Source: Acinetobacter phage Acj61
Reading direction: 5' to 3' (one strand)
DNA: 64,000 nt
Sequence record: GU911519.1
Shown: piece after piece, positions 7,027 to 49,206 of the stretch
How positions within the stretch are numbered: position 1 is the stretch's first letter
Layout of the letters: each line of letters starts with the position of its first letter
Notes under the pieces: generated by a model
The model's database searches: none
What the model was told of the DNA's origin: nothing
What the model saw: only the letters and a program-made list of their open reading frames with translations
Made by a program: the position numbers and the translations under genes

Positions 7027-8145
7027 TTACTCCATCAATGCCTTTTCCCACATTGCGAATACACGTTCTGGGCGATACTGCTCATACAATGCATTAGCTC
7101 GTTCAACACGTTGTTCAAACGTATCGGTGAATTCATTCAATGCCTTTGAATATGCAGCAATAATTTCTTTGGTGTCCATACCATCTTCAATCCAAACGAT
7201 CTTAGTGTTAGGGTCATGTTCAAGCGTTGCATGACTATAACCACGTTGAATCAATTGCAGAACTGGAACACCTTTCTCAATTGCTTCCATTGAGCCATGT
7301 TCGATGGTACCTGTGTCATGACAAGTATTGACGAGCACAAGTGCTTCTTTCAATGTTTCTTGAATCAATTTACGGGGTTTGTCCATTTGAACGAATGGCT
7401 CTTTCAAATATTTCTTTGGTGGAGCCCATTGGCTTGGCAAGAACGCAACGATTTTGTGAGGACACTGTGCCATAGATTCTAACGCAACGTTTGTCTTTCG
7501 GAATTTCAAGTCATAACGCTGAGCTTGGACAACAGTACCATTTGAAGGCAGAACTTCAGGCTTTTTCTCAATCAGAGTTGCTGGGAAGAAATTGTCTGAA
7601 ATGATGTCATGTTCAGCCCAGTAATCAAAATCGATAGCATCAACAGCAAGTTTGGTATTCATTTTAGAATAGACACGAGTTGTCAAATCCTTAAATGTAT
7701 GAGTTGGCACTAAGTTCTTACCACCGTTCTGATGAATGAAGATTGCTGTACGCCAGATCGAAATAAGTGTACGGATGCCTGGGTCAAGTGGAGTTGCTAA
7801 AAGATTTCGAATTTTTGGTCCAAGTCCTAATTTGACAAGACCATTGATTACACCTTTAGCGCCTTCAACAGTAACGACAACATCATATTTTGAGTAGTCT
7901 TGCTCAGCAATTTTCTCAACGATTTTATTGCCATGTTTGATTGTGTACTTATCCACAATAGGATAATCAATCGAGATCGGATTTACTTTGTACGGACCAA
8001 AGTTCTCGTCACCAAAAGCCATATAATCAATTTCATGATGTTGGCTCATTGTTTTGATGAAGTTTAATTGAACCGACTCGAGACCACCTGAAATGTAGTC
8101 TGCGTTGAAAGTGATAAAACGACATGGAATGTATAAAATTTTCAT
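7027..8145 (-). CDS. GT-B fold glycosyltransferase, paralog 1 (candidate DNA sugar transferase)
   Basis: 372 aa; C-terminal LVNTCHDTGTIEHGSMEAIEKGVPVL resembles the GT4/GT-B EX7E-type motif; tandem paralog of 8203-9321. Confidence 0.55.
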   Translation of the reverse strand: MKILYIPCRFITFNADYISGGLESVQLNFIKTMSQHHEIDYMAFGDENFGPYKVNPISIDYPIVDKYTIKHGNKIVEKIAEQDYSKYDVVVTVEGAKGVINGLVKLGLGPKIRNLLATPLDPGIRTLISIWRTAIFIHQNGGKNLVPTHTFKDLTTRVYSKMNTKLAVDAIDFDYWAEHDIISDNFFPATLIEKKPEVLPSNGTVVQAQRYDLKFRKTNVALESMAQCPHKIVAFLPSQWAPPKKYLKEPFVQMDKPRKLIQETLKEALVLVNTCHDTGTIEHGSMEAIEKGVPVLQLIQRGYSHATLEHDPNTKIVWIEDGMDTKEIIAAYSKALNEFTDTFEQRVERANALYEQYRPERVFAMWEKALME

Positions 8146-8202: not shown

Positions 8203-9321
8203 TTAGCTCAAAACTGTTTCCCACAGTTTGAAGTATGCATCTTTGTTGAAACGATTGTACAAATATTCTGCACGTTTGACACGATTTTCTTGAGTGTCAG
8301 TGAATTCATTTAATGCTTTAGCATACATATCAATCAATGTTGCAGTGTCAGTACCTTCTTCAAATTCAACACGAACTGTTGTCGGGTCGTATTCGAATGT
8401 TGCATGATTGAATCCTTTTTGAATCAATTGCAAGACCGGTACACCTTGTGAAATGGCTTCAAGACTTCCATTTTCAACTGTGCCAGTGTTATGACATGTG
8501 TTGACAAGAACTTTAGCAACAGAGATTTCGATTTGGATTTCACGACGAGATGAATCGATCATGACCCATGACTTCTCTAACCATTTCTTGCCTGGTGCCC
8601 ATTTGCTAGGACAGAATGCAAGTTTAGGACCTTGATACAAGTCCATTGCACCGAATGCTACATTTGATTTACGAAATGCATTGTCAAAACGTTGAGCTTG
8701 AACAATGTGTCCTTCTGATTCAAGGACGTCTGGCTTTTCTTCAATCAAGATCGGTGGATAGAAATCATCTGCGATGATGTCATTGGCTTGCCAATATTCA
8801 AAGTCTATGACTTCTGCTGCAATTCGTGTATTCATTTTCGAGTACACTTGAGCTGCTAAGTCTTTAAACGTTTGAGTTGGAACAATGTTCTTTCCGCCTA
8901 ATTTGTGAACCATTACTGCGTTGTTCCAGCATTGAACGATACCACGAACCGATGGGTCAAGTGGAGTTGCAAGAATATTGCGAACTTTTGAAATTTGACC
9001 AAGTTCAGCTAATGCATTGAGAACCATCTTACTGCCTTCGATAATAACGATAGCATCATATTGGTCCCAATCTTGAATTTCTTGCAACAAGTACTTGATC
9101 TTGTATGCATGTGCTGTAGTGAACTTACCACCAATCGGTTTGTTGATAGACAATTCATTGACTGCTAAGTGTCCGAAGTCTTCATCGCCAAATGATACAT
9201 AATCGATGTCATGTACCTTTGACATGTTGTTGATGAAGTTGTACTGAACAGCCTCAAGTCCGCCATCGACACGATTGATATTGAAAGGTACTGAACGGCA
9301 AGGCAAATATAAAATTTTCAT
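8203..9321 (-). CDS. GT-B fold glycosyltransferase, paralog 2 (candidate DNA sugar transferase)
   Basis: Start moved to ATG (MKILYLPCR) with a GGAG RBS, because the ORF-track start is a TTG. C-terminal motif VLVNTCHNTGTVENGSLEAISQGVPVL. Confidence 0.55.
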   Translation of the reverse strand: MKILYLPCRSVPFNINRVDGGLEAVQYNFINNMSKVHDIDYVSFGDEDFGHLAVNELSINKPIGGKFTTAHAYKIKYLLQEIQDWDQYDAIVIIEGSKMVLNALAELGQISKVRNILATPLDPSVRGIVQCWNNAVMVHKLGGKNIVPTQTFKDLAAQVYSKMNTRIAAEVIDFEYWQANDIIADDFYPPILIEEKPDVLESEGHIVQAQRFDNAFRKSNVAFGAMDLYQGPKLAFCPSKWAPGKKWLEKSWVMIDSSRREIQIEISVAKVLVNTCHNTGTVENGSLEAISQGVPVLQLIQKGFNHATFEYDPTTVRVEFEEGTDTATLIDMYAKALNEFTDTQENRVKRAEYLYNRFNKDAYFKLWETVLS

Positions 9322-9322
9322 G

Positions 9323-9862
9323 TTATGCTCCAATGAATTCTTTGATTTTCAAATCAGCTACTACTTGATCAAATGGCTTGGCTTCGATAACGCCATTGTA
9401 CACATCATGTTCAAGAATTTTGTATGGAGTAATCCAAAGAGCTTTGTACAAGCTTTCGAATTCATCAACGATCTTATTGAATTGATCTTCTGAGATTGCA
9501 ATCAAATCATCGGCGAAATTATCTTCAAGTTTGTTACGAGTGAGTCCAACTACAAGAACTTGGTTGTTCTCGATGAATCGTTGGAAGTCATCCATGAACA
9601 CATCAGTTCGTTTTCCACGAAGTACACTTTCATACACAATGTTACTTAAACCACCACGATCAAGAACATAAGTCTGATCATTATTGATATATTGTAACAT
9701 AGTTTCAAAGATAGCAACTTCATTACGTGTTACACAAGTGAAACGTCCTTCACTTGTCTTTTTAGGAAACTTCATTACCTTTGCTCCAAGGCTTTCGAGG
9801 CCTTGGATAAAAGTAGTTTTTCCTGAGTTGTCGGGACCTTCAACCAGAATTAACTTAGCCAT
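9323..9862 (-). CDS. P-loop nucleotide/nucleoside kinase (thymidylate/dNMP-kinase-like)
   Basis: LILVEGPDNSGKTT Walker A at the N-terminus; 179 aa; a second kinase in addition to gp1. Confidence 0.55.
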   Translation of the reverse strand: MAKLILVEGPDNSGKTTFIQGLESLGAKVMKFPKKTSEGRFTCVTRNEVAIFETMLQYINNDQTYVLDRGGLSNIVYESVLRGKRTDVFMDDFQRFIENNQVLVVGLTRNKLEDNFADDLIAISEDQFNKIVDEFESLYKALWITPYKILEHDVYNGVIEAKPFDQVVADLKIKEFIGA

Positions 9863-14929: not shown

Positions 14930-16102
14930 TTAAAAACCGAAAATATCTTCAAGAGAAGCTTTCTTTTCACATTGAAGCCCAGCGGCTTCACACATACCTT
15001 CAAGTGGAGTCTTGAAAGATTTACCGAATAATGAGACATAATCGACTGAACGTAGAACGTTTTGACGAATCTCAGTTGGAATCTCTGTACCAGAAGGCCA
15101 TGCAATCAATTTGTCACCAAATGGGTTGGCAGGTACTAATGGCAGAACCATGACCTTTTCGCCTTCTTGGATGTCTGTTGCACCAGGGATTTCTTTGATT
15201 GCTCGTTTGTAAGTCAGAACTCCACGAATATGAGCAGGACACTTGAGACCAGGGAATCCATTGTCATCATATTTAGCAATGTTGTTTGCAGACGAAACTT
15301 TAGCGATCACTTTGTAATCAAGAGCTCGATATTCATTTTCAAACTCTTTGTAGTAAGTTTGAAGTGATTTCTCACCTTCTTGAAGCATTCGGCGAATAGA
15401 TTCAACTAATGCATCTTGAACTGCCTTAGGAGTAGATGATTGCTGAGTTTCCATTCCCATGATTTTCAAGTATGGTGTCTTGAATCGAGTACCTTCCATG
15501 TCCCATACACAAAGTGCATATCGTTTCTTAGCTTTCCAGAATCCACCGATACCTTCAGAACCAAGTGGTGGTGCAGAGATTGCTTCACGATCCATAAACA
15601 TCAAATGTTCGCGATTGTTCATGTACTCACACATTTCACGATATGCTGTATCAATCATTGGTTCCATTTTCTTGAGACCAAATTGATTCAAGAATTCGAT
15701 CAAATCATTTGTCTCTTTGAAACGTTCGATGCCAACTTTTTCAATTACTTTGTCAACACAGACATAGATCGAATCTGTATCACCAGCAATAACGAATGCA
15801 TGTCCTGTAGTTCCACAGACTTTATTCAAGTACTCGTTAACTTTTCGTTCAATCCATTGAATTGCCATTTGTCCAAACGTAGTAATTGCTGCAGCATTTC
15901 GAAGATCATAGAATCGGAAATAAATATTACCTAAAGCACCATACAACGAGTTAATGAGTAGCTTTCGGTTGATCTGATTCGTGTCACACAACATGATGAA
16001 ATCGGCACAATCTTGTTCAAGTTTTTCGATTTCTTCGTCAGACAGTGTTTGAAGATAAGCGATTTCTTCGTCAGTGAAATCACGTCCAAAGTCAAGGTTC
16101 AT
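14930..16102 (-). CDS. 43: DNA polymerase gp43, C-terminal fragment (43B): polymerase motifs B and C
   Basis: KLLINSLYGALG (motif B) and VIAGDTDSIYV (motif C) of family-B polymerases; 390 aa; own ATG start. Confidence 0.85.
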   Translation of the reverse strand: MNLDFGRDFTDEEIAYLQTLSDEEIEKLEQDCADFIMLCDTNQINRKLLINSLYGALGNIYFRFYDLRNAAAITTFGQMAIQWIERKVNEYLNKVCGTTGHAFVIAGDTDSIYVCVDKVIEKVGIERFKETNDLIEFLNQFGLKKMEPMIDTAYREMCEYMNNREHLMFMDREAISAPPLGSEGIGGFWKAKKRYALCVWDMEGTRFKTPYLKIMGMETQQSSTPKAVQDALVESIRRMLQEGEKSLQTYYKEFENEYRALDYKVIAKVSSANNIAKYDDNGFPGLKCPAHIRGVLTYKRAIKEIPGATDIQEGEKVMVLPLVPANPFGDKLIAWPSGTEIPTEIRQNVLRSVDYVSLFGKSFKTPLEGMCEAAGLQCEKKASLEDIFGF

Positions 16103-20089: not shown

Positions 20090-21598
20090 TTACTTGCGCA
20101 ACTTCTTGAGGATTTCTAAGTTTCGTTTACCAGGCAACATCTTGTTTTTCCATTCTTTACGTTGGAAGAACACTTTGGTGATTTCTTCAGGAATCACACC
20201 TTGGACATCTTTGGTGTACATCATGCCGTTTGGTGAACAACTGTACACTTCTGAAGGACGTGGAGCAGTTTTGTTGATGTACTCAGCCAATGGACTTAAT
20301 GCGAATGTACCTGCAATAGTTTCTGGGCTGATATTCACTTGACGAATGATCGATGGATACAATGATGTCAAGTCAAATGACATAACATATTTGTAAGCAC
20401 CTGGTTTTGGTTCCTTAACGTATGCACCTGGATAACCTTGACGAATATGAGATTTGCCTTCTGGTAAGATCGTGTGCTTTGATTTCAATGAGTTGAATAA
20501 AATCGCATCCCAAGTTTTGATTGGAGACATGACTGATCCGATTGCCATTTTAGCATAGTAACCCATTGAAAGTGATAGGTTAATGAATCCACGTTTCACA
20601 TCAATCGCTTGTACAGATTCAACGTCCATGATGTTGTACGAAATGTAACGTTGGTGATTTCGTTCACGTAACTTGTTAATTGGACCATCATATTCCAACT
20701 TACCAACACCGGTTTCATATTTCGCAATGAAGTCAAGTTTATAAGTCGGTTGGTTTGTGAATGCGAACTTTTTGTATAAGTCCATGTAGTCAAGAATCGT
20801 GACACCTACGATATTGAAGATTTCTTTGTCACCATACATGTTAGTGATGACTTTAGAAGTTACTTTACCGAATGGACTCATTCGATTGACTGCACTGTTA
20901 CCAAGAACTCGTTTCAAACGATTGAGCACGTATGGAATATCGAATCCTTCAACGTTCCAACCTGTGAAAATTACTGGTCGTTTAGTTTCCCAAAGATTGA
21001 CGTATTCCATCAATAATTCTTTTTCAGAATCAAATGGCATGTACACGACTTTGTCTAAAAGATTTTGAGGTACTTCATCACCACCTTCAGAATCTGGGCG
21101 AGCTGCAAGTTTGATGTCCCATTTCGAAACAGAACCATAAACCGAATTCAACAAGTCAAAGACATAGTACTTGTCATCGATTGAATCATAGTGAGTGATC
21201 GCATCGATTTCATACATCGCTTCAGCTGGATTCGGGAACTCTGCTGCAGTCACCTCAATGTCCATATTGGCAACACGAACATATTTTCGATTGTACTCAA
21301 TCACATCTTTGTATGTGTCAGCAATATATGCTAATTTGAAGTCATCCATACCAAGAACATCGACGATACCACGAGTTTTCTGCATCCAATCTTTGGCATC
21401 TTTGATGCATGTGAATCGTTTAGGGAGACATGGCTTACCATAAATGTCTTTGTACTTTGATTCAACGTGATCTTGTGCATGAATGAATAATGTCGGTTCA
21501 TATGGCACATAACGAATAACTTCTTCACCAAATTCATTGATGTATCGTTCACAAATGTTGTTACCAATCTGTTCGACTGCTAAATAAAAAGGCTTCAT
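20090..21598 (-). CDS. 43: DNA polymerase gp43, N-terminal fragment (43A): 3'-5' exonuclease domain plus motif A
   Basis: VANMDIEVT (Exo I D-x-E) and SFDLTSLYPSII (motif A); 502 aa ending at a stop codon. Sum with 43B is 892 aa against T4 gp43 898 aa. Confidence 0.85.
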   Translation of the reverse strand: MKPFYLAVEQIGNNICERYINEFGEEVIRYVPYEPTLFIHAQDHVESKYKDIYGKPCLPKRFTCIKDAKDWMQKTRGIVDVLGMDDFKLAYIADTYKDVIEYNRKYVRVANMDIEVTAAEFPNPAEAMYEIDAITHYDSIDDKYYVFDLLNSVYGSVSKWDIKLAARPDSEGGDEVPQNLLDKVVYMPFDSEKELLMEYVNLWETKRPVIFTGWNVEGFDIPYVLNRLKRVLGNSAVNRMSPFGKVTSKVITNMYGDKEIFNIVGVTILDYMDLYKKFAFTNQPTYKLDFIAKYETGVGKLEYDGPINKLRERNHQRYISYNIMDVESVQAIDVKRGFINLSLSMGYYAKMAIGSVMSPIKTWDAILFNSLKSKHTILPEGKSHIRQGYPGAYVKEPKPGAYKYVMSFDLTSLYPSIIRQVNISPETIAGTFALSPLAEYINKTAPRPSEVYSCSPNGMMYTKDVQGVIPEEITKVFFQRKEWKNKMLPGKRNLEILKKLRK

Positions 21599-40114: not shown

Positions 40115-41179
40115 TTAAACTCGATAGCCTAATGATTTCTCTACTTCGTAAAGATATGTGTTGTGAACAAAGTTTTCCCAGAATTGGCGATCAACTTTAG
40201 CTGGCATACCATTTTTGCCTGCTGTTACACATGCTTTATCAACATCGACGATCAGGTCTTCAAGACATTCTTGGAAGGCTTTGAAGTTGATTTCACCTGC
40301 TTTGATTTGCTTAACAAATTCAGCTTGTCCAAGTGGATACTTCAGATCGCCTGTTTGATAGATTTCAAGCAACTGGATTCCACCTCGATAAGCATGACTC
40401 AGAGCTTTCCAATCGATACCTTCATTTGACTCTGCTTGACGTGCTCGAGCTCCATATTCATCCCATACTCGAGCTAGTTTCTCTTTAAGCTCGGATACTC
40501 GAATTGTGAGTTGGTGTTTGCGTCCTAACACATTATAGAACTCATTACCTTTCTCATCGACTTCTAATGAAGCAAATTCATTAAGAGGCAGCTTATCTTT
40601 GAAGTCTTTCAACTTATTGATTCGAACTGTGCTGATGTGACCAAGCTCAGAGAAGTTTTGATGTTTCGTCATTGCTTCATCTAAAGCCTGTTTGGCAGAA
40701 ATGTGACGTTCATCAGGCAATGTTACTACAACTTCTAAGACTTGGCGAAGAGCTGCAAGACGAGTTCCTTTGATGCCATATTTTGCTGCTTGTTTCTTGA
40801 CATAGCCAAGATATGCTTTCATATCAGTTGTATAGAAACGATGACGATTCTTTTGAATGTAGTTCCAAGTTGCATTGTGTTCAGCGAAGTTTTGATGAAC
40901 AGGAGTGTGAAGCATATCAATTGCAATGGTTTCACCTTTGGAAGCTAATTCAATGAAGTACTTGAGAGAGTAGTATTCACGATCTACGTCTTCTGAAGTG
41001 TTCTTCGAATTCTTAGTGTTTGTATCACGATTAAAATGAGATGGACCATTGCCAAGGATGATTTCTCGTGCTGTTGGTAAGAAGATTGCTTTGAAATCTT
41101 GGTCGCTTGTTGGAGTGTTCGTGCCATAAAGAGTTGAACCAAAAACTCCGTCGAAAATGATTTTGTGATCGATATTCAT
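40115..41179 (-). CDS. Pol-beta-superfamily nucleotidyltransferase, unknown substrate
   Basis: N-terminal GSTLYGTNTPTSDQDF (GS...DxD); 354 aa with a large helical C-terminal domain. Confidence 0.5.
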   Translation of the reverse strand: MNIDHKIIFDGVFGSTLYGTNTPTSDQDFKAIFLPTAREIILGNGPSHFNRDTNTKNSKNTSEDVDREYYSLKYFIELASKGETIAIDMLHTPVHQNFAEHNATWNYIQKNRHRFYTTDMKAYLGYVKKQAAKYGIKGTRLAALRQVLEVVVTLPDERHISAKQALDEAMTKHQNFSELGHISTVRINKLKDFKDKLPLNEFASLEVDEKGNEFYNVLGRKHQLTIRVSELKEKLARVWDEYGARARQAESNEGIDWKALSHAYRGGIQLLEIYQTGDLKYPLGQAEFVKQIKAGEINFKAFQECLEDLIVDVDKACVTAGKNGMPAKVDRQFWENFVHNTYLYEVEKSLGYRV

Positions 41180-44688: not shown

Positions 44689-45123
44689 CTAGTGTCCTTG
44701 AGTTTGTGCACGAGACTTGCCTTTGCACATTTTTGAGTACCAATCTTCATAGAAAACTGGGTCTTTCAATTTTTCTTGAAACACTTTTGATGCACGTTCA
44801 GCTCGTTCTTGGCGATCTTCTTTGGTCATAGTAGCATTGATGTAATCAAAACCACCTGTGCCTCCGAGCTTGAGATTGTATGTGTCATCTCGATCAATGA
44901 ACTCTTGATCTACAAGTTGAGATTCATGCTCAAACATTTCTTCTTGAGATGAATGAAATTTGAGGATTTCTTTTTCAAATTTGTCAGCTCCATATTTAGC
45001 CATAGCACGTTTGAGAATTGTGCCTGAACCCATGTAGCCATCATTGAGACGTTTGGTTTTGTGGGCTCCTATGTAAATGTGTTTAGTGACTGAATTTGTG
45101 ATTTTGTATGTGTAAAAATACAT
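44689..45123 (-). CDS. GIY-YIG homing endonuclease (Seg-like)
   Basis: [18 protein letters not shown]...DGYMGSG GIY-YIG motif; 144 aa. Confidence 0.7.
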   Translation of the reverse strand: MYFYTYKITNSVTKHIYIGAHKTKRLNDGYMGSGTILKRAMAKYGADKFEKEILKFHSSQEEMFEHESQLVDQEFIDRDDTYNLKLGGTGGFDYINATMTKEDRQERAERASKVFQEKLKDPVFYEDWYSKMCKGKSRAQTQGH

Positions 45124-45241
45124 GACTCTTTACCGTTTGTTCAACGTTGGAGAATCTCATAGAGAATACCATCAAGTGGCATATGTATTTATACAAAACC
45201 AGCCAATTTGAGCATTGTTAAGAGGCTTGGCTGGTCAATTT

Positions 45242-45580: not shown

Positions 45581-45807
45581 TAGTCCTCCCAGTGAGATTC
45601 AATCTCGGCTTGCAATGCGGTCGACAGTTCTTTATTGAATTCCGGAATGTTTGATTCAACGTCGTGCCTATAAACATATTTGAGCTCGTCACCCATCCAT
45701 TTTTTGCATTCTTCAATAAAGTGTTCTACACTAATCACATGTAACAAGTGAAGATAATGATCAGAACTCTCGGTGGTCATGCTAACTGCTACTGGTACAG
45801 TTCCCAT
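45580..45807 (-). CDS. Small hypothetical protein
   Basis: 75 aa. Confidence 0.4.
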   Translation of the reverse strand: MGTVPVAVSMTTESSDHYLHLLHVISVEHFIEECKKWMGDELKYVYRHDVESNIPEFNKELSTALQAEIESHWED

Positions 45808-46032
45808 AATATTTCTCCTTTAAAAGGGCCATGGCTTTCGCCTTGTTTGCGCAATAACTTCGTTCAGAAGTCGATTCAGCGAATACTCCCGATGCAATGT
45901 GAATAACTCGTACATTGGTCGGGTTGATATTCAGTTGGTTGGTTTTTCGAAAAGTTTCAGTTCGAATTTCATGAGCTCCGAATTCCATGTCATCCTGCCT
46001 TGATGGGTCGAGTTAAATGTTTTTCGAGTTTT

Positions 46033-46722: not shown

Positions 46723-46890
46723 TCATTCTCCTACATAGAATTTGAGGATGCAAAAGATAATCATTAGACCGGCAACATGGATTTTAGGCCATGCATTCAT
46801 TTTGTCGATCTTGTCACCAACCATCAATGACAAGATGCCATCTAAAAGAATTATCAGCGAAATTACGAATATAACAGCAAATATGAACAT
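46723..46890 (-). CDS. Small membrane protein (55 aa)
   Basis: Unlisted ORF MFIFAVIFVISLIILLDG... with two TM helices; stop overlaps the start of the next gene. Confidence 0.35.
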   Translation of the reverse strand: MFIFAVIFVISLIILLDGILSLMVGDKIDKMNAWPKIHVAGLMIIFCILKFYVGE

Positions 46891-46957
46891 AATGGTTCTC
46901 AATATGTTTTGATAGATTGATTATATCATAAACATCTGAGAAAGTAAAACCTTTTGC

Positions 46958-46991
46958 AAAAAAAAAGGACTGACGAATTGCTCGACAGTCC
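46958..46991 (-). terminator. Rho-independent terminator closing the tRNA array
   Basis: Hairpin GGACTG-N13-CAGTCC followed by a 9-T run on the minus strand. Confidence 0.6.
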
Positions 46992-47023
46992 TAGATTTGT
47001 AATAATTTATTGTTGTAGTTATT

Positions 47024-47113
47024 TGGTAGTTGTGCTGGGTAACGCTCCCAGATCAAGCACTTATCTAGTGGAAAGGTGTATAAATCCTCTTGCTTTCTTT
47101 AAGCTACACAACC
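47024..47113 (-). ncRNA. tRNA-like small RNA with acceptor-like stem and encoded CCA (about 90 nt)
   Basis: 5' GGTTGTG pairs with 3' CACAACT, followed by A-CCA; internal hairpin CTGGG-AGCGTTA-CCCAG. Flanked by the same AAT(T)AT spacers that separate the tRNAs, but no canonical D/anticodon/T arms. Confidence 0.35.
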
Positions 47114-47119
47114 ATAATT

Positions 47120-47196
47120 TGGCAGAATCGCCTTCGATTCGAACGAAGATTAACGGGGTTGGAGCCCGTCGTGGTACCATTACACTAGCGACCTAT
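47120..47196 (-). tRNA. tRNA-like, anticodon CCA (Trp); acceptor stem imperfect, possibly a pseudo-tRNA
   Basis: Anticodon arm ACGGG-CTCCAAC-CCCGT, T arm CTTCG-TTCGAAT-CGAAG and D-loop AATGGTA are present. The 3' acceptor strand GCGATTC pairs poorly with 5' AGGTCGC. Confidence 0.35.
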
Positions 47197-47200
47197 AATT

Positions 47201-47276
47201 TGGTGCACGAGACATGATTCGAACATGTGACCTGCTGCTCTTCAGGCAGCCACTCTACCAACTGAGTTACTCGTGC
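47201..47276 (-). tRNA. tRNA-Phe (GAA)
   Basis: GCACGAGTAACTCAGTTGGTAGAGTGGCTGCCTGAAGAGCAGCAGGTCACATGTTCGAATCATGTCTCGTGCACCA; canonical cloverleaf; CCA encoded. Confidence 0.8.
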
Positions 47277-47282
47277 GTTATT

Positions 47283-47356
47283 TGGTAGCGATATCCAGAC
47301 TCGAACTGGAACCTTTGGGTTATGAGCCCTATGTGCAACCTTTACACCATATCGCG
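47283..47356 (-). tRNA. tRNA-Met/Ile2 (CAT)
   Basis: Anticodon loop CTCATAA; T arm TCCAG-TTCGAGT-CTGGA; CCA encoded; 1-72 pair mismatched. Confidence 0.6.
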
Positions 47357-47362
47357 ATAATT

Positions 47363-47436
47363 TGGAAGTCGCAAAAGGGATCGAACCTTTACTAACAGAG
47401 TCAAATTCTGTGGTGCTACCATTACACCATGCGACA
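47363..47436 (-). tRNA. tRNA-Gln (TTG)
   Basis: Anticodon stem-loop ACAGA-ATTTGAC-TCTGT; T arm AAAGG-TTCGATC-CCTTT; U1-U72. Confidence 0.65.
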
Positions 47437-47527
47437 ATTGATAGTTTTTGATCTGCTGAACTATAACAGCAGCTCGACAGTAAGTTCATCGAGTCTCAAG
47501 AAGTGTATTTCTACACTTAGACAAATT

Positions 47528-47603
47528 GGTCTCCCTAGTTGGATTTGAACCAACGACATCTTCTTTCCAAAAGAAGTAGGCTACCAGACTGCCCTATAGA
47601 GAG
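47528..47603 (-). tRNA. tRNA-Pro (TGG)
   Basis: CTTCT-TTTGGAA-AGAAG anticodon arm; GTTGG-TTCAAAT-CCAAC T arm; CCA encoded. Confidence 0.8.
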
Positions 47604-47659
47604 ATAACAAAAATAATGGATTAGTGAGCATTGTAAAGAGGCAAATCCATATCTGAAAT

Positions 47660-47735
47660 TGGTCGTCGAGACATGATTCGAACATGTGACCTGCGGATTA
47701 TCGGTCCGTTGCTCTACCAACTGAGCTACTCGACG
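47660..47735 (-). tRNA. tRNA-Ile (GAT), with unusual C33
   Basis: Perfect acceptor stem CGTCGAG/CTCGACG; anticodon loop CCGATAA; T loop TTCGAAT. Confidence 0.65.
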
Positions 47736-47830
47736 GGAGGTGAAACTGGGATTTGAACCCAGGGCCCCATATCACTATGAGACGGTAGTTTTCAAGACTA
47801 CTGCAATAAGCCAGACTCTGCCACTTCACC
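47736..47830 (-). tRNA. tRNA-Ser (TGA), type II, CCA not fully encoded
   Basis: GGTGAAG acceptor; anticodon arm GTAGT-CTTGAAA-ACTAC; long variable arm; T arm CTGGG-TTCAAAT-CCCAG. The 3' end is ...TCC, shared with the first nucleotide of the next tRNA. Confidence 0.65.
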
Positions 47831-48034
47831 AAAATTCTGTGATAGTTTTGTTTATGTAACGACCAAGCTCTATCAACTTCGCCAATCATTCAAAAGAATG
47901 ACAACATTTTTCAATTCTCACTTGAGGTGGAGGAACACCTTGTTAGGACAGCTCCAAAACGTTCTAAAGTTTCGTAAGGTATCCCGAGCTAAATCAGTCA
48001 TTGCGCTTATGGCTATGATTCAACTACTAACATT
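47831..48034 (-). ncRNA. About 200-nt non-tRNA spacer inside the tRNA array; candidate small stable RNA
   Basis: No tRNA fold found and no credible ORF; T4 carries two small stable RNAs (species 1 and 2) in its tRNA region. Confidence 0.25.
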
Positions 48035-48110
48035 TGGCTCCCCAGACACGGATCGAACGTGTGACCCACAGATTAACAGTCTGCTGCTCTACCAACTGAG
48101 CTACTGAGGA
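48035..48110 (-). tRNA. tRNA-Asn (GTT)
   Basis: TCCTCAGTAGCTCAGTTGGTAGAGC...CTGTTAA...TTCGATC...CTGGGGAGCCA. Confidence 0.8.
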
Positions 48111-48143
48111 AGAAATTGTTTAATTTATTATAATTATTTATAT

Positions 48144-48218
48144 TGGTTGGACCACACAGATTCGAACTGAGACTAACGACATCACAAATCGCGGTGCTAA
48201 CCATTACACCATGGTCCA
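48144..48218 (-). tRNA. tRNA-His (GTG)
   Basis: Acceptor TGGACCA/TGGTCCA; anticodon loop TTGTGAT; T loop TTCGAAT; A73-CCA. Confidence 0.7.
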
Positions 48219-48226
48219 CATCAAAT

Positions 48227-48302
48227 TGGTACTCTTATCGGGACTTGAACCCGAGTTTTCAACGTGAAAGGCTGACGTCCTAACCGACTAGACGATAAGA
48301 GC
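48227..48302 (-). tRNA. tRNA-Glu (TTC)
   Basis: Anticodon arm TCAGC-CTTTCAC-GTTGA; T arm TCGGG-TTCAAGT-CCCGA; CCA encoded. Confidence 0.75.
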
Positions 48303-48308
48303 AATGTT

Positions 48309-48394
48309 TGGTGGGGCCGGTGAGACTTGAACTCACAGATGCTTTTGGCGTCGGATTTACAGTCCGATGGGGTTACCAATTTTCCTACGTCCCC
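48309..48394 (-). tRNA. tRNA-Tyr (GTA), type II
   Basis: 86 nt; anticodon arm TCGGA-CTGTAAA-TCCGA; long variable arm; T arm GTGAG-TTCAAGT-CTCAC; CCA encoded. Confidence 0.7.
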
Positions 48395-48410
48395 GTAGTA
48401 ATTCTTAAAG

Positions 48411-48481
48411 TTCTGGCACGAGTAATCGAAACTCGGTGACTGGAGTACAAAACCAGCATAATACCACTATATGATGCCAGA
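48411..48481 (-). tRNA. tRNA-Thr (TGT), no encoded CCA; flanked by a 12-13-bp extended inverted repeat
   Basis: Acceptor TCTGGCA/TGCCAGA; D arm CATA-TAGTGGTAT-TATG; anticodon loop TTTGTAC; T arm CGAGT-TTCGATT-ACTCG. The 3' trailer is CTT instead of CCA. Confidence 0.55.
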
Positions 48482-48594
48482 ACTTTAAGAACTATGTTGT
48501 TTAGTTGATATAGACAGTATATCATACTTTTCCTAACAGCATATTGATTTGCTGTTGGGGCGTGTGTTTCTATAATTATATTTATACAACAATC

Positions 48595-48670
48595 TGGAGG
48601 CGTCAACAGGACTCGAACCTGCATCGACGCGGATTTGCAATCCGCCGTATAACCATTCTACCACAACGCC
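48595..48670 (-). tRNA. tRNA-Cys (GCA)
   Basis: Anticodon arm GCGGA-TTGCAAA-TCCGC; T arm GCAGG-TTCGAGT-CCTGT; CCA encoded. Confidence 0.7.
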
Positions 48671-48678
48671 TTTAATTT

Positions 48679-48755
48679 TGGAGCCCCGCATGAGATTCGA
48701 ACTCATATAAGTCGCAATAGAACTACGATGCCTAATCCAACTCGGCCAGCGAGAC
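48679..48755 (-). tRNA. tRNA-Arg (TCT)
   Basis: Acceptor GTCTCGC/GCGGGGC with two G-U pairs; anticodon loop GTTCTAT; T arm ATGAG-TTCGAAT-CTCAT; CCA encoded. Confidence 0.6.
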
Positions 48756-48760
48756 ATATT

Positions 48761-48847
48761 TGGCGGAAAGAGGAGTGCTCGAAACTCAACCGTTACCAGT
48801 CAACTCGCTTAGCAGGCGGTTCCCAATCCAAGATGGGTTCACTTTCC
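48761..48847 (-). tRNA. tRNA-Ser (GCT), type II
   Basis: 87 nt; acceptor GGAAAGT/TCTTTCC; anticodon loop CTGCTAA; long variable arm; T loop TTTCGAGC; CCA encoded. Confidence 0.55.
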
Positions 48848-48855
48848 AAATTAAA

Positions 48856-49038
48856 CTATTCAAATTTAGCTTTCAAGAATTCGTACAACGCTCGAGATTC
48901 TTTAGGGTCAAAAGTTGTATCAACTGACTCATATTGCTCATCGTCATACACTGACTTGACTACAAGAATATCGCCATCAAATTCAACGTCGAAACTGCAA
49001 TTTCCAGGTACGGATAAATCTCGTTCTAAGATAGCCAT
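48856..49038 (-). CDS. Small acidic hypothetical protein
   Basis: 60 aa. Confidence 0.4.
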   Translation of the reverse strand: MAILERDLSVPGNCSFDVEFDGDILVVKSVYDDEQYESVDTTFDPKESRALYEFLKAKFE

Positions 49039-49206
49039 TGCTAACTCCTTTAAGTAACTTTTTAAAACGTTCTATTCTTGCAACTAATCGGAATTCAACC
49101 GATAATCTTAGGGCTTATTGTCAGGCCTATATTCTAACTTTGAACTAGTCATCACTAAGAACGTTTTAAAAAGTTACCTCAATTAAGAGGTAACTCCGAG
49201 GTAAAT

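Follow-up and report, generated by a model that had tools for sequence, protein, structure and literature searches.

The region described here lies on the minus strand of a 64,000-nucleotide stretch of the genome of Acinetobacter phage Acj61 (GU911519.1), the whole of which is referred to as the window. It very probably represents a transfer RNA (tRNA) operon of a T4-like (Straboviridae) Acinetobacter phage, embedding 14 canonical tRNA genes, two of which lack an encoded CCA, together with two conserved non-canonical tRNA-like genes. The array itself is real but ordinary, and the new points are limited to the two non-canonical units and to the precursor of tRNA-Thr, which appears to be locked in a long helix formed by its leader and trailer.

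Composition of the array and related phages

ARAGORN, run with default parameters on the whole window, identified 14 tRNA genes on the minus strand, between positions 47124 and 48755. The Rfam tRNA model (RF00005) retrieved 13 tRNAs when the whole window was scanned and 14 when the scan was limited to 46800-49000; the latter scored 40-70.9 bits (gathering score 29), and the two programs agree on an identical set of 14 genes. Their order, 5′ to 3′ on the minus strand, is Arg(UCU), Cys(GCA), Thr(UGU), Tyr(GUA), Glu(UUC), His(GUG), Asn(GUU), Ser(UGA), Ile(GAU), Pro(UGG), Gln(UUG), CAU, Phe(GAA), and Trp(CCA). All 14 anticodons are identical to those listed in an earlier note on this DNA, which had proposed a minus-strand array of about 15 tRNAs. 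Fourteen of these stand; the fifteenth, a Ser(GCT) gene, falls below the default thresholds of both finders, and what speaks for it is the covariation within its family. A 16th unit had not been named, and the left edge that the note had given to the array, 47024, corresponds to the 3′ end of this unit (47024-47113).

The Ser(GCT)-like unit (48761-48847) was called by ARAGORN only once the thresholds had been lowered to 85%, and the 90-nucleotide (nt) unit at 47024-47113 only at 95% of the thresholds, as "Ile(tat)"; neither matched RF00005 at E ≤ 10 in the scan of 46800-49000. A value of 85% can be regarded as a useful floor, since false positives on the opposite strand begin at 80%. The intron mode of ARAGORN gave nothing further in the array, and its transfer-messenger RNA (tmRNA) mode at 80% gave spurious permuted calls only. 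Similarly, the other Rfam families yielded only chance matches in the array at E ≤ 10 (YrlA with 22 bits, Plastid-ycf2, and alpha_tmRNA with 8 bits); the Y RNA-like match (YrlA, RF02553) spans the Ser/Ile junction with 22.4 bits against a gathering score of 69, and none falls at Thr or at the 90-nt RNA. The open reading frames (ORFs) overlapping the array, such as that of 98 amino acids (aa) at 47193-47489, run through the tRNA genes and were therefore treated as artefacts of ORF calling. Both sub-threshold units are described in the following as tRNA-like or tRNA-derived, and not as tRNAs. The units of the array and the elements accompanying them are listed below (bp, base pairs).

48761..48847, minus strand: Ser(GCT)-like class II tRNA-like gene, 87 nt, ending G-CCA (ARAGORN at 85% only)
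48679..48755, minus strand: tRNA-Arg(UCU), CCA encoded (ARAGORN; Rfam 40 bits)
48595..48670, minus strand: tRNA-Cys(GCA), CCA encoded (ARAGORN; Rfam 53.7 bits)
48482..48594, minus strand: 113-nt spacer with a TATAAATA box (48579-48586) and an 11-bp hairpin (48531-48560)
48399..48494, minus strand: tRNA-Thr(UGU) with its leader/trailer helix, no encoded CCA (ARAGORN 48410-48481; Rfam 50 bits)
48309..48394, minus strand: tRNA-Tyr(GUA), class II, A5.G68 mismatch, CCA encoded (ARAGORN, Rfam)
48227..48302, minus strand: tRNA-Glu(UUC), G1.U72, CCA encoded (ARAGORN, Rfam)
48144..48219, minus strand: tRNA-His(GUG), G-1 encoded (48219) opposite A73, CCA encoded (ARAGORN 48144-48218; Rfam)
48135..48142, minus strand: TATAAATA box between His and Asn
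48035..48110, minus strand: tRNA-Asn(GUU), CCA encoded (ARAGORN, Rfam)
47831..48034, minus strand: 204-nt spacer holding a conserved 39-nt block (47902-47940)
47736..47830, minus strand: tRNA-Ser(UGA), class II, ending ...ACC-U-CC and abutting Ile (ARAGORN, Rfam)
47660..47735, minus strand: tRNA-Ile(GAU), C33, C1-G72, CCA encoded (ARAGORN, Rfam)
47527..47603, minus strand: tRNA-Pro(UGG), CCA encoded (ARAGORN, Rfam)
47437..47526, minus strand: 90-nt Pro-Gln spacer with three predicted hairpins (z = -2.25)
47363..47436, minus strand: tRNA-Gln(UUG), U1.U72 mismatch, CCA encoded (ARAGORN, Rfam)
47283..47356, minus strand: tRNA(CAU), C1.U72 (ARAGORN, Rfam)
47201..47276, minus strand: tRNA-Phe(GAA), CCA encoded (ARAGORN; Rfam 70.9 bits)
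47120..47194, minus strand: tRNA-Trp(CCA), 8-nt 3′ acceptor strand with a one-nucleotide bulge, ending G-CCA (ARAGORN 47124-47194; Rfam 46.3 bits)
47024..47113, minus strand: 90-nt tRNA-derived RNA, ending A-CCA (ARAGORN at 95% only)
46958..46992, minus strand: intrinsic terminator closing the array (z = -4.06)
49166..49197, minus strand: terminator-like hairpin (49197-49170) upstream of the 60-aa ORF preceding the array (z = -3.62)

The surroundings of the array are those of a T4-like phage: the genes upstream of it encode a deoxynucleoside monophosphate kinase and a homologue of T4 57B, matching the T4 layout, and genes for a gp43-like DNA polymerase, a clamp loader, a helicase, and an SbcD-like protein are present elsewhere in the window. 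A megablast search with 46800-49100 retrieved patches only, the best match being Acinetobacter phage 133 (17% covered at 92% identity). This phage (HM114315, Straboviridae), the nearest relative, has 16 annotated tRNAs at the same locus, and comparable clusters exist in Kimel, AB1I1M-1, PhT2, and Maestro, so that an array of this size is normal for these phages. The remark of the earlier note that T4 has only eight tRNAs is true (rnaC and rnaD come in addition), but phage 133, rather than T4, is the appropriate yardstick.

The T4 cluster, with its eight tRNAs, the stable RNAs rnaD and rnaC, and segB inside, occupies the same genomic neighbourhood with the same strand logic. It also shares with the Acj61 array the tight packing with ...CCA-AAUUAU-type spacers, the presence of some CCA-less tRNAs (Pro and Ser in T4), and the dimeric precursors. 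However, the Acj61 array comprises 14-16 units instead of eight, lacks Leu and Gly, has Cys, Tyr, Glu, His, Asn, Phe, and Trp in addition, and, unlike that of T4, holds no seg gene; moreover, no T4 counterpart of the Thr leader/trailer helix was found. As for phage 133, it shares with Acj61 a Pro-spacer-Gln block (96% identical), C33 in tRNA-Ile, and the extra acceptor nucleotide of tRNA-Trp, but it differs in having Asp, Gly, and three CAT tRNAs, coding sequences interspersed among the tRNAs, and a different gene order. The Twarogvirinae (Lazarusvirus and Hadassahvirus) share instead the locked, CCA-less Thr block (96-98%) and the Ser(GCU)-like gene. Judging from these similarities, the array is a mosaic of single-gene blocks common to different phage lineages.

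The two non-canonical units

The fold proposed for the 90-nt RNA that ends the array is a cloverleaf of five helices: the acceptor stem (7 bp), the D stem (4 bp), the anticodon stem (5 bp), an extra hairpin (4 bp) located in a variable region of 20 nt, and the T stem (5 bp). Four distinct sequences of this family are available (Acj61, YMC13/03/R2096, Bestia, and BS46), all of exactly 90 nt. In their alignment, the 25 pairs of this fold are 100% paired, whereas sliding the partners lowers the value to 36-57%. Five of the pairs, which fall in four of the five helices, show compensatory changes, and all four Watson-Crick combinations occur at one pair of the T stem. Conservation starts at G1, which faces U72, and ends at ...ACCA. 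An alternative pairing of the variable arm (CUAGAU/AUCUGG) was discarded, as it is not kept in the homologues.

The alignment with ordinary tRNAs reveals a molecule resembling a class I tRNA whose variable region carries an insertion of 16 nt and whose D loop is shortened and devoid of GG; the T loop (AGCGUUA or GGCAGUA) is non-consensus and retains only C56 and R57. The loop UUUAUA(C/A) would offer U33, a "UAU" anticodon, and A37, provided that an A.A closing pair is accepted. The RNA also carries several identity elements of the isoleucyl-tRNA synthetase (IleRS) of Escherichia coli, namely A73, A37, A38 (three of the four sequences), U12-A23, and C4-G69 (again three of four), all of them weak discriminators.

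Homologues sharing 83-89% identity are harbored by Acinetobacter phages of ~94-98 kb that are unrelated to T4 (YMC13/03/R2096, P577, Bestia, BS46, and Phab24), and BLAST retrieved the RNA from no T4-like phage, but only from these ~94-98-kb ones. Their elements have the same length, fold, ACCA end, and placement as the Acj61 copy, which differs from them in having U-A instead of C-G at 4-69, C instead of A at loop position 38, and AGCGUUA instead of GGCAGUA as the T loop. In every genome the RNA lies a few nucleotides past a tRNA gene, inside or beside a tRNA array, and the same holds for a metagenome contig; this position suggests that it is presumably released by the same processing enzymes. 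The contig, whose copy is identical to that of YMC13, was the only one found in the pattern scan of metagenomes; the scans of IMG/VR returned the known YMC13 genome and two chance matches without a tRNA context, and that of the GTDB genome contigs returned nothing.

A covariance model built on this family assigns 113-119 bits to its own copies, the next matches being ordinary tRNAs with 21-28 bits. The best non-self match, with 28 bits, is a gene of Kimel (L007:533-607) annotated as tRNA-Pyl, whose aligned loop is CUA (amber-reading). The possibility that the RNA is a homologue of T4 rnaC or rnaD was discarded: the model finds no match on the T4 tRNA locus, the folds differ, and the T4 RNAs are 139 and 119 nt long versus 90. 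The resemblance is in position only, since the non-tRNA stable RNAs of T4 also lie at the 3′ end of their cluster and the Acj61 RNA is likewise the last unit before the terminator, with the same AAUUAU spacer; the rnaD-rnaC junction of T4 is the same CCA-AAUUAU as the Acj61 spacers.

The second non-canonical unit, the Ser(GCU)-like one, possesses G73, a CCA end, and a 5-bp variable arm, but its anticodon stem contains only three Watson-Crick pairs in addition to C.A and A.G, and a U7.U66 mismatch is also present. The latter has been added in the Acj61 copy, which explains its sub-threshold score. Homologues with 73-80% identity are found in many Acinetobacter T4-like phages, including Lazarusvirus and Hadassahvirus; PhT2 and Maestro have them annotated as tRNA-Ser(gct), and those of Konradin and Kimel lack an annotation or lie under a "hypothetical protein". 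The alignment of four distinct sequences has 98.9% of its cells paired, and four pairs of the D and T stems are compensated; the anticodon arm is invariant, its C.A and A/G.G non-pairs included. This pattern of substitutions is that of a constrained class II tRNA-like gene.

The tRNA-Thr precursor, CCA ends, and acceptor oddities

The 5′ leader of tRNA-Thr pairs with its 3′ trailer, and this pairing prolongs the 7-bp acceptor stem by 13 bp without interruption, to a total of 19-20 bp (fold z of the block, -6.65); the 12-13-bp inverted repeat that had been noticed around this gene is thus recovered at its upper length. In seven phages (six distinct sequences), the common 19-bp helix is 100% paired, versus 29-48% with slid partners. 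Within the extension, one pair alternates between U.G (three sequences), C-G (two), and U-A (one), and a second one is G.U throughout; four further compensated pairs occur in the acceptor and T stems. Since G.U and U.G can pair only in the RNA of the tRNA-sense strand, the constraint acts on the transcript, and not on a DNA cruciform or on a protein-binding repeat. On the evidence of this alignment, the inverted repeat is an RNA-level helix.

The same repeat might otherwise be a DNA element, i.e., the target of a homing endonuclease, a recombination site, or the ends of a small mobile cassette. This would agree with the distribution of the 94-nt Thr block, which is 96-98% identical in about 50 genomes of Lazarusvirus, Hadassahvirus, and related Acinetobacter T4-like genera, whereas megablast finds no match between the array and the other tRNAs of these genomes. 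Moreover, genes for Seg-like homing endonucleases lie close to the block in Kimel and Maestro, and SegB is known to target tRNA genes (PMC2330249). Nevertheless, the repeat abuts positions -1 and 73 exactly, hence it stacks on the acceptor stem; the invariant G.U and the alternating U.G/C-G/U-A pair would be mismatches in DNA or in the opposite strand; and no flanking target-site duplication was seen. A DNA element in place of an RNA helix is therefore improbable, even though a homing-driven spread of the block and its function as RNA can both be true.

The homologous Thr gene of the Saclayvirus phiAbaA1, unlike the T4-like version, has an ordinary single-stranded flank and encodes its CCA. 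The annotation of the T4-like version varies: "tRNA-Thr" (tRNAscan 51.6), "tRNA-Pseudo-TGT" (AbTZA1), or nothing. According to PMC7897497, a paired 5′ leader blocks RNase P, so that the Thr helix would first have to be cleaved or opened. RNase III would be the obvious candidate to cut a helix of about two turns. This enzyme is said to participate in the processing of the T4 tRNA cluster, as Pragai and Apirion reportedly described in 1981.

The inspection of the 3′ ends shows that CCA is encoded in all the units except Thr and Ser(UGA), the same two tRNAs that the earlier note had indicated. In Thr, the discriminator A73 is followed by CUUUAAG. Ser(UGA) ends in ...ACC-U73-CC, and the next base, C 47735, is already nucleotide 1 of Ile (C1-G72); the spacer is therefore of 0 nt, as expected from the abutment reported before, and the terminal A of Ser is not encoded. 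The Ser orthologue of phage 133 has a full CCA and is separated from Ile by a coding sequence, whereas in that of Acj61 the fusion to Ile leaves only CC. An RNase P cut at Ile +1 would leave Ser with a ...UCC end, to which one A would have to be added. This fusion parallels the dimeric Pro-Ser precursor of T4, in which neither tRNA encodes CCA and the host nucleotidyltransferase is required; RNase P itself prefers a 3′ CCA (PMC11143913), and T4 tRNA-Ser lacks CCAG (PMC2330249). By analogy with T4 Pro/Ser, the maturation of Thr and Ser(UGA) would depend on 3′ processing and CCA addition; the core of the proposal made earlier for these tRNAs is thus supported.

The window also encodes a nucleotidyltransferase of 354 aa (40115-41179, minus strand), which belongs to the RlaP family (PF10127, E = 2e-11; phrog_388, E = 1e-108) and for which the sequence search found no relative of solved structure. 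It was considered as a phage CCA-adding enzyme and rejected, being an RlaP-family protein without a match to PF01743, the Pfam family of CCA-adding enzymes and poly(A) polymerases. RlaP enzymes add one or two nucleoside monophosphates to RNA 3′ ends in tRNA repair (PMC12776372); the protein may therefore be relevant to the ...UCC end of Ser, though it is not a canonical CCA-adding enzyme.

In tRNA-Trp, the CCA is encoded only if the 3′ acceptor strand is read with one bulged nucleotide (...GCGAUUCU-G-CCA). As drawn by ARAGORN, with a 7-bp stem, the gene has A1.C72 and no CCA; the bulged reading gives A1-U72, G73, and CCA, the same end as in E. coli tRNA-Trp. The extra nucleotide is absent from five other Trp genes and present in phage 133, which points to a lineage trait and not to decay. 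Hence, this copy, formerly called degenerate, does have an odd acceptor nucleotide, but with its 46 bits and a peculiarity common to phage 133 the term does not suit it.

Other departures from the canonical tRNA are also present, of which the mismatched 1-72 pairs and the C33 of Ile had been recognized in the earlier note. The 1-72 pair is U.U in Gln and C.U in the CAT tRNA, besides G.U in Glu and the A.C of Trp mentioned above. A 7-nt anticodon loop with U33 and a purine at 37 is present in 13 of the 14 tRNAs, the exception being Ile(GAU), whose loop is C32 C33 GAU A A and whose C33 also occurs in the tRNA-Ile of phage 133. tRNA-Thr carries U31.U39. The tRNA(CAU) has C1.U72 and G29-31:C39-41 in the anticodon stem, as does E. 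coli tRNA-fMet (cf. PMC1524935), and its T arm resembles that of T4 tRNA-Ile(CAU); fMet, Met, and Ile2 are all candidate identities, among which the alignment does not settle.

It might be argued that the Ser(GCU)-like unit, the 90-nt "UAU" RNA, the bulged Trp, and the locked Thr are decaying, functionless pseudogenes, which would leave only about 11 or 12 functional tRNAs. The sub-threshold ARAGORN calls, the lack of an Rfam match for two of these units, and the mismatches in the anticodon and acceptor stems would all be in line with decay, as would the annotations of AbTZA1, where the Thr homologue is labelled tRNA-Pseudo-TGT, and of P577, where the region matching the 90-nt RNA bears a tRNA-pseudo. 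However, all four units are kept in several phage genera, where compensatory changes maintain 99-100% of the pairing, and in each unit the conserved stretch starts at the 5′ end and stops at the CCA end. Furthermore, none of the oddities varies, be it the C.A/A.G anticodon stem, the G.U of the Thr extension, or the Trp bulge, and invariant oddities combined with maintained pairing indicate selection rather than drift. Decay is for these reasons an unlikely explanation.

Transcription, surroundings, and role of the array

Tightly packed units are followed by A/U-rich spacers of 5-10 nt (AAUUAU, AAUAAC, AAUAU, and AACAUU), in agreement with the AAT(T)AT spacers described earlier. The array is closed, as had also been proposed, by a terminator at 46992-46958, in which nine U residues come directly after a hairpin of 7+3 bp (fold z = -4.06), so that it qualifies as an intrinsic terminator; a simple scan missed it because of an internal mismatch and a long loop. 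On the other side, the 60-aa ORF at 48856-49038 precedes the array and runs into it, and a terminator-like hairpin of 11 bp followed by UUUU (49197-49170, z = -3.62) lies upstream of this ORF; the hairpin (49166-49197) is likely to be the upstream boundary of the transcription unit. The window contains ten TATAAATA boxes versus 3.3 expected, eight of them on the minus strand and two inside the array. This sequence is the T4 late-promoter consensus, and by analogy each box is a candidate late promoter. Directly past the array terminator, a strong sigma-70-type promoter (46948-46920, minus strand; TTTACT, a 17-nt spacer, and a TG-extended TATAAT, 10/12 matches) starts the next block of small ORFs.

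Two of the longer spacers deserve mention. The Pro-Gln spacer shares 94% identity with phage 133, being about as conserved as the flanking tRNAs, and the differences in its stems turn a G.U into a Watson-Crick pair (hairpin 2) and a C-G into a U-A (hairpin 3), which makes a structured RNA or a processing signal probable. A block of 39 nt (47902-47940, minus strand; AGGUGUUCCUCCACCUCAAGUGAGAAUUGAAAAAUGUUG) is 90-97% conserved in about 27 T4-like phages of Acinetobacter baumannii, Lazarusvirus members included; in the aligned Kimel sequence it directly precedes tRNA-Ser(tga), and in Acj61 it is found 70 nt upstream of Ser(UGA).

Other elements were observed around the array. A near-consensus abiF RNA motif (RF03085; 45198-45234, minus strand; 58 bits versus a gathering score of 37) is located 1.8 kb downstream, between a 112-aa ORF and an ORF similar to GIY-YIG homing endonucleases. 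No Abi_2/AbiF match was found in the four ORFs nearest to it, and BLAST detected the motif in no other Acinetobacter phage, the sole match being 42 nt in a Roseobacter phage. The RNA of this motif is reported to neutralise the AbiF HEPN toxin by direct binding (bioRxiv 10.1101/2025.04.15.648962), so that an orphan copy in a lytic phage could be an antitoxin mimic. The GIY-YIG-like ORF (144 aa, 44689-45123, minus strand) matches only the N-terminal GIY-YIG domain of Seg-type endonucleases (phrog_314; PF01541; PF19835 SegE) and may be a truncated seg gene; a TATAAATA box lies ahead of it at 45186-45193. About 1 kb downstream of the array, a 68-aa ORF (45782-45988, minus strand) matches the RF-1 (GGQ) domain with 31.5 bits (E = 2e-7), under the Pfam cut-off of 35, and the tRNA cluster of Kimel contains a gene annotated as "putative peptidyl-tRNA hydrolase / release factor 2". 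Farther away, the gp43-type DNA polymerase is split into two minus-strand ORFs, one for the N-terminal 502 aa (20090-21598) and one for the C-terminal 390 aa (14930-16102), with about 4 kb containing several small ORFs between them, and the minus-strand ORFs at 7027-8145 and 8203-9333 are adjacent full-length paralogues (phrog_8302; E = 1e-192 and 2e-187).

On the basis of these data, a model can be proposed in which the minus-strand array would be transcribed as one or a few polycistronic RNAs, possibly also from the internal TATAAATA boxes, up to the terminator at 46992-46958. Host RNase P and 3′ nucleases would then cut the units apart at the short A/U-rich spacers. Trimming alone could not finish Ser(UGA), which needs an A, or Thr(UGU), which has no CCA; in the latter, RNase P, 3′ trimming, and the CCA-adding enzyme could act only after the 19-20-bp helix had been opened, either by melting or by cleavage, for which RNase III is the most plausible enzyme. 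The mature phage tRNAs would finally supplement or replace the host pool during infection.

The codon usage of the phage fits supplementation: in 57 ORFs, GAA, CAA, CCA, UCA, and ACA account for 81%, 79%, 48%, 41%, and 41% of their respective families, and the array covers these commonest codons. The set also covers rare ones, e.g., AGA. Several points weigh against the model or parts of it. AGA and AUA are rare in phage genes (5% of the Arg and 6% of the Ile codons, respectively). The guanine-cytosine (GC) content of the phage is 38.8% and that of Acinetobacter is close to this value, so that a simple codon compensation is not obviously needed. Both non-canonical units fail the default tRNA detection of ARAGORN and Rfam, and the 90-nt RNA, devoid of the D-loop GG and of the T-loop consensus of a normal elbow, may not be aminoacylated. 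A consensus scan disclosed no convincing sigma-70 promoter directly upstream of the array, and co-transcription, RNase III cleavage, and CCA addition are all steps that we infer.

A different main role is possible, although it can be put forward only tentatively, that is, counter-defence: the phage tRNAs would replace host tRNAs cut or depleted by defence nucleases, and the C33 of Ile, the U31.U39 of Thr, and the weak stem of Ser(GCU) would confer resistance to such enzymes. The similar GC content of phage and host weakens the case for codon compensation and to that extent favours this role, as does the fact that C33 and other oddities are kept in relatives. Precedents exist in other phages: variants in the anticodon loop of phage tRNAs evade anticodon nucleases (PMC10264068), and T5 tRNAs neutralise the effectors of PARIS and of retrons (PMC11464382, PMC11555353). 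However, no Acinetobacter defence system or nuclease target was identified here, and the match between the tRNA set and the most used codons of the phage (GAA, CAA, CCA, UCA, and ACA) is what plain supplementation would produce. The two roles, supplementation and counter-defence, are not mutually exclusive.

A bolder and rather speculative reading concerns the new points themselves. The 90-nt RNA might found an undescribed family of phage tRNA-derived RNAs, characterized by a non-canonical elbow, a 20-nt variable region, and a "UAU" loop, which would be exchanged among unrelated Acinetobacter phages and processed from tRNA operons; it might act as a TilS-independent decoder of AUA or as a non-translating mimic, e.g., a decoy for tRNA-targeting defence. 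In addition, the Thr helix might make maturation dependent on RNase III, a gated precursor of a kind not described for phage tRNAs.

That T4-like Acinetobacter phages carry 10-16 tRNAs was already known, and CCA-less T4 tRNAs are textbook knowledge. What the present analysis adds concerns, in the first place, annotation, since two conserved tRNA-like genes are missed or inconsistently labelled in dozens of Acinetobacter phage genomes (as tRNA-Ser, tRNA-Thr, "pseudo", "hypothetical protein", or nothing). In the second place, the conserved departures from the tRNA canon found here, i.e., C33, a bulged acceptor, weak anticodon stems, and a locked CCA-less precursor, are of the kind now being linked to the evasion of tRNA-targeting defences. 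Many of the relatives of Acj61 are candidates for therapy against A. baumannii, so that knowing their functional small RNAs is useful.

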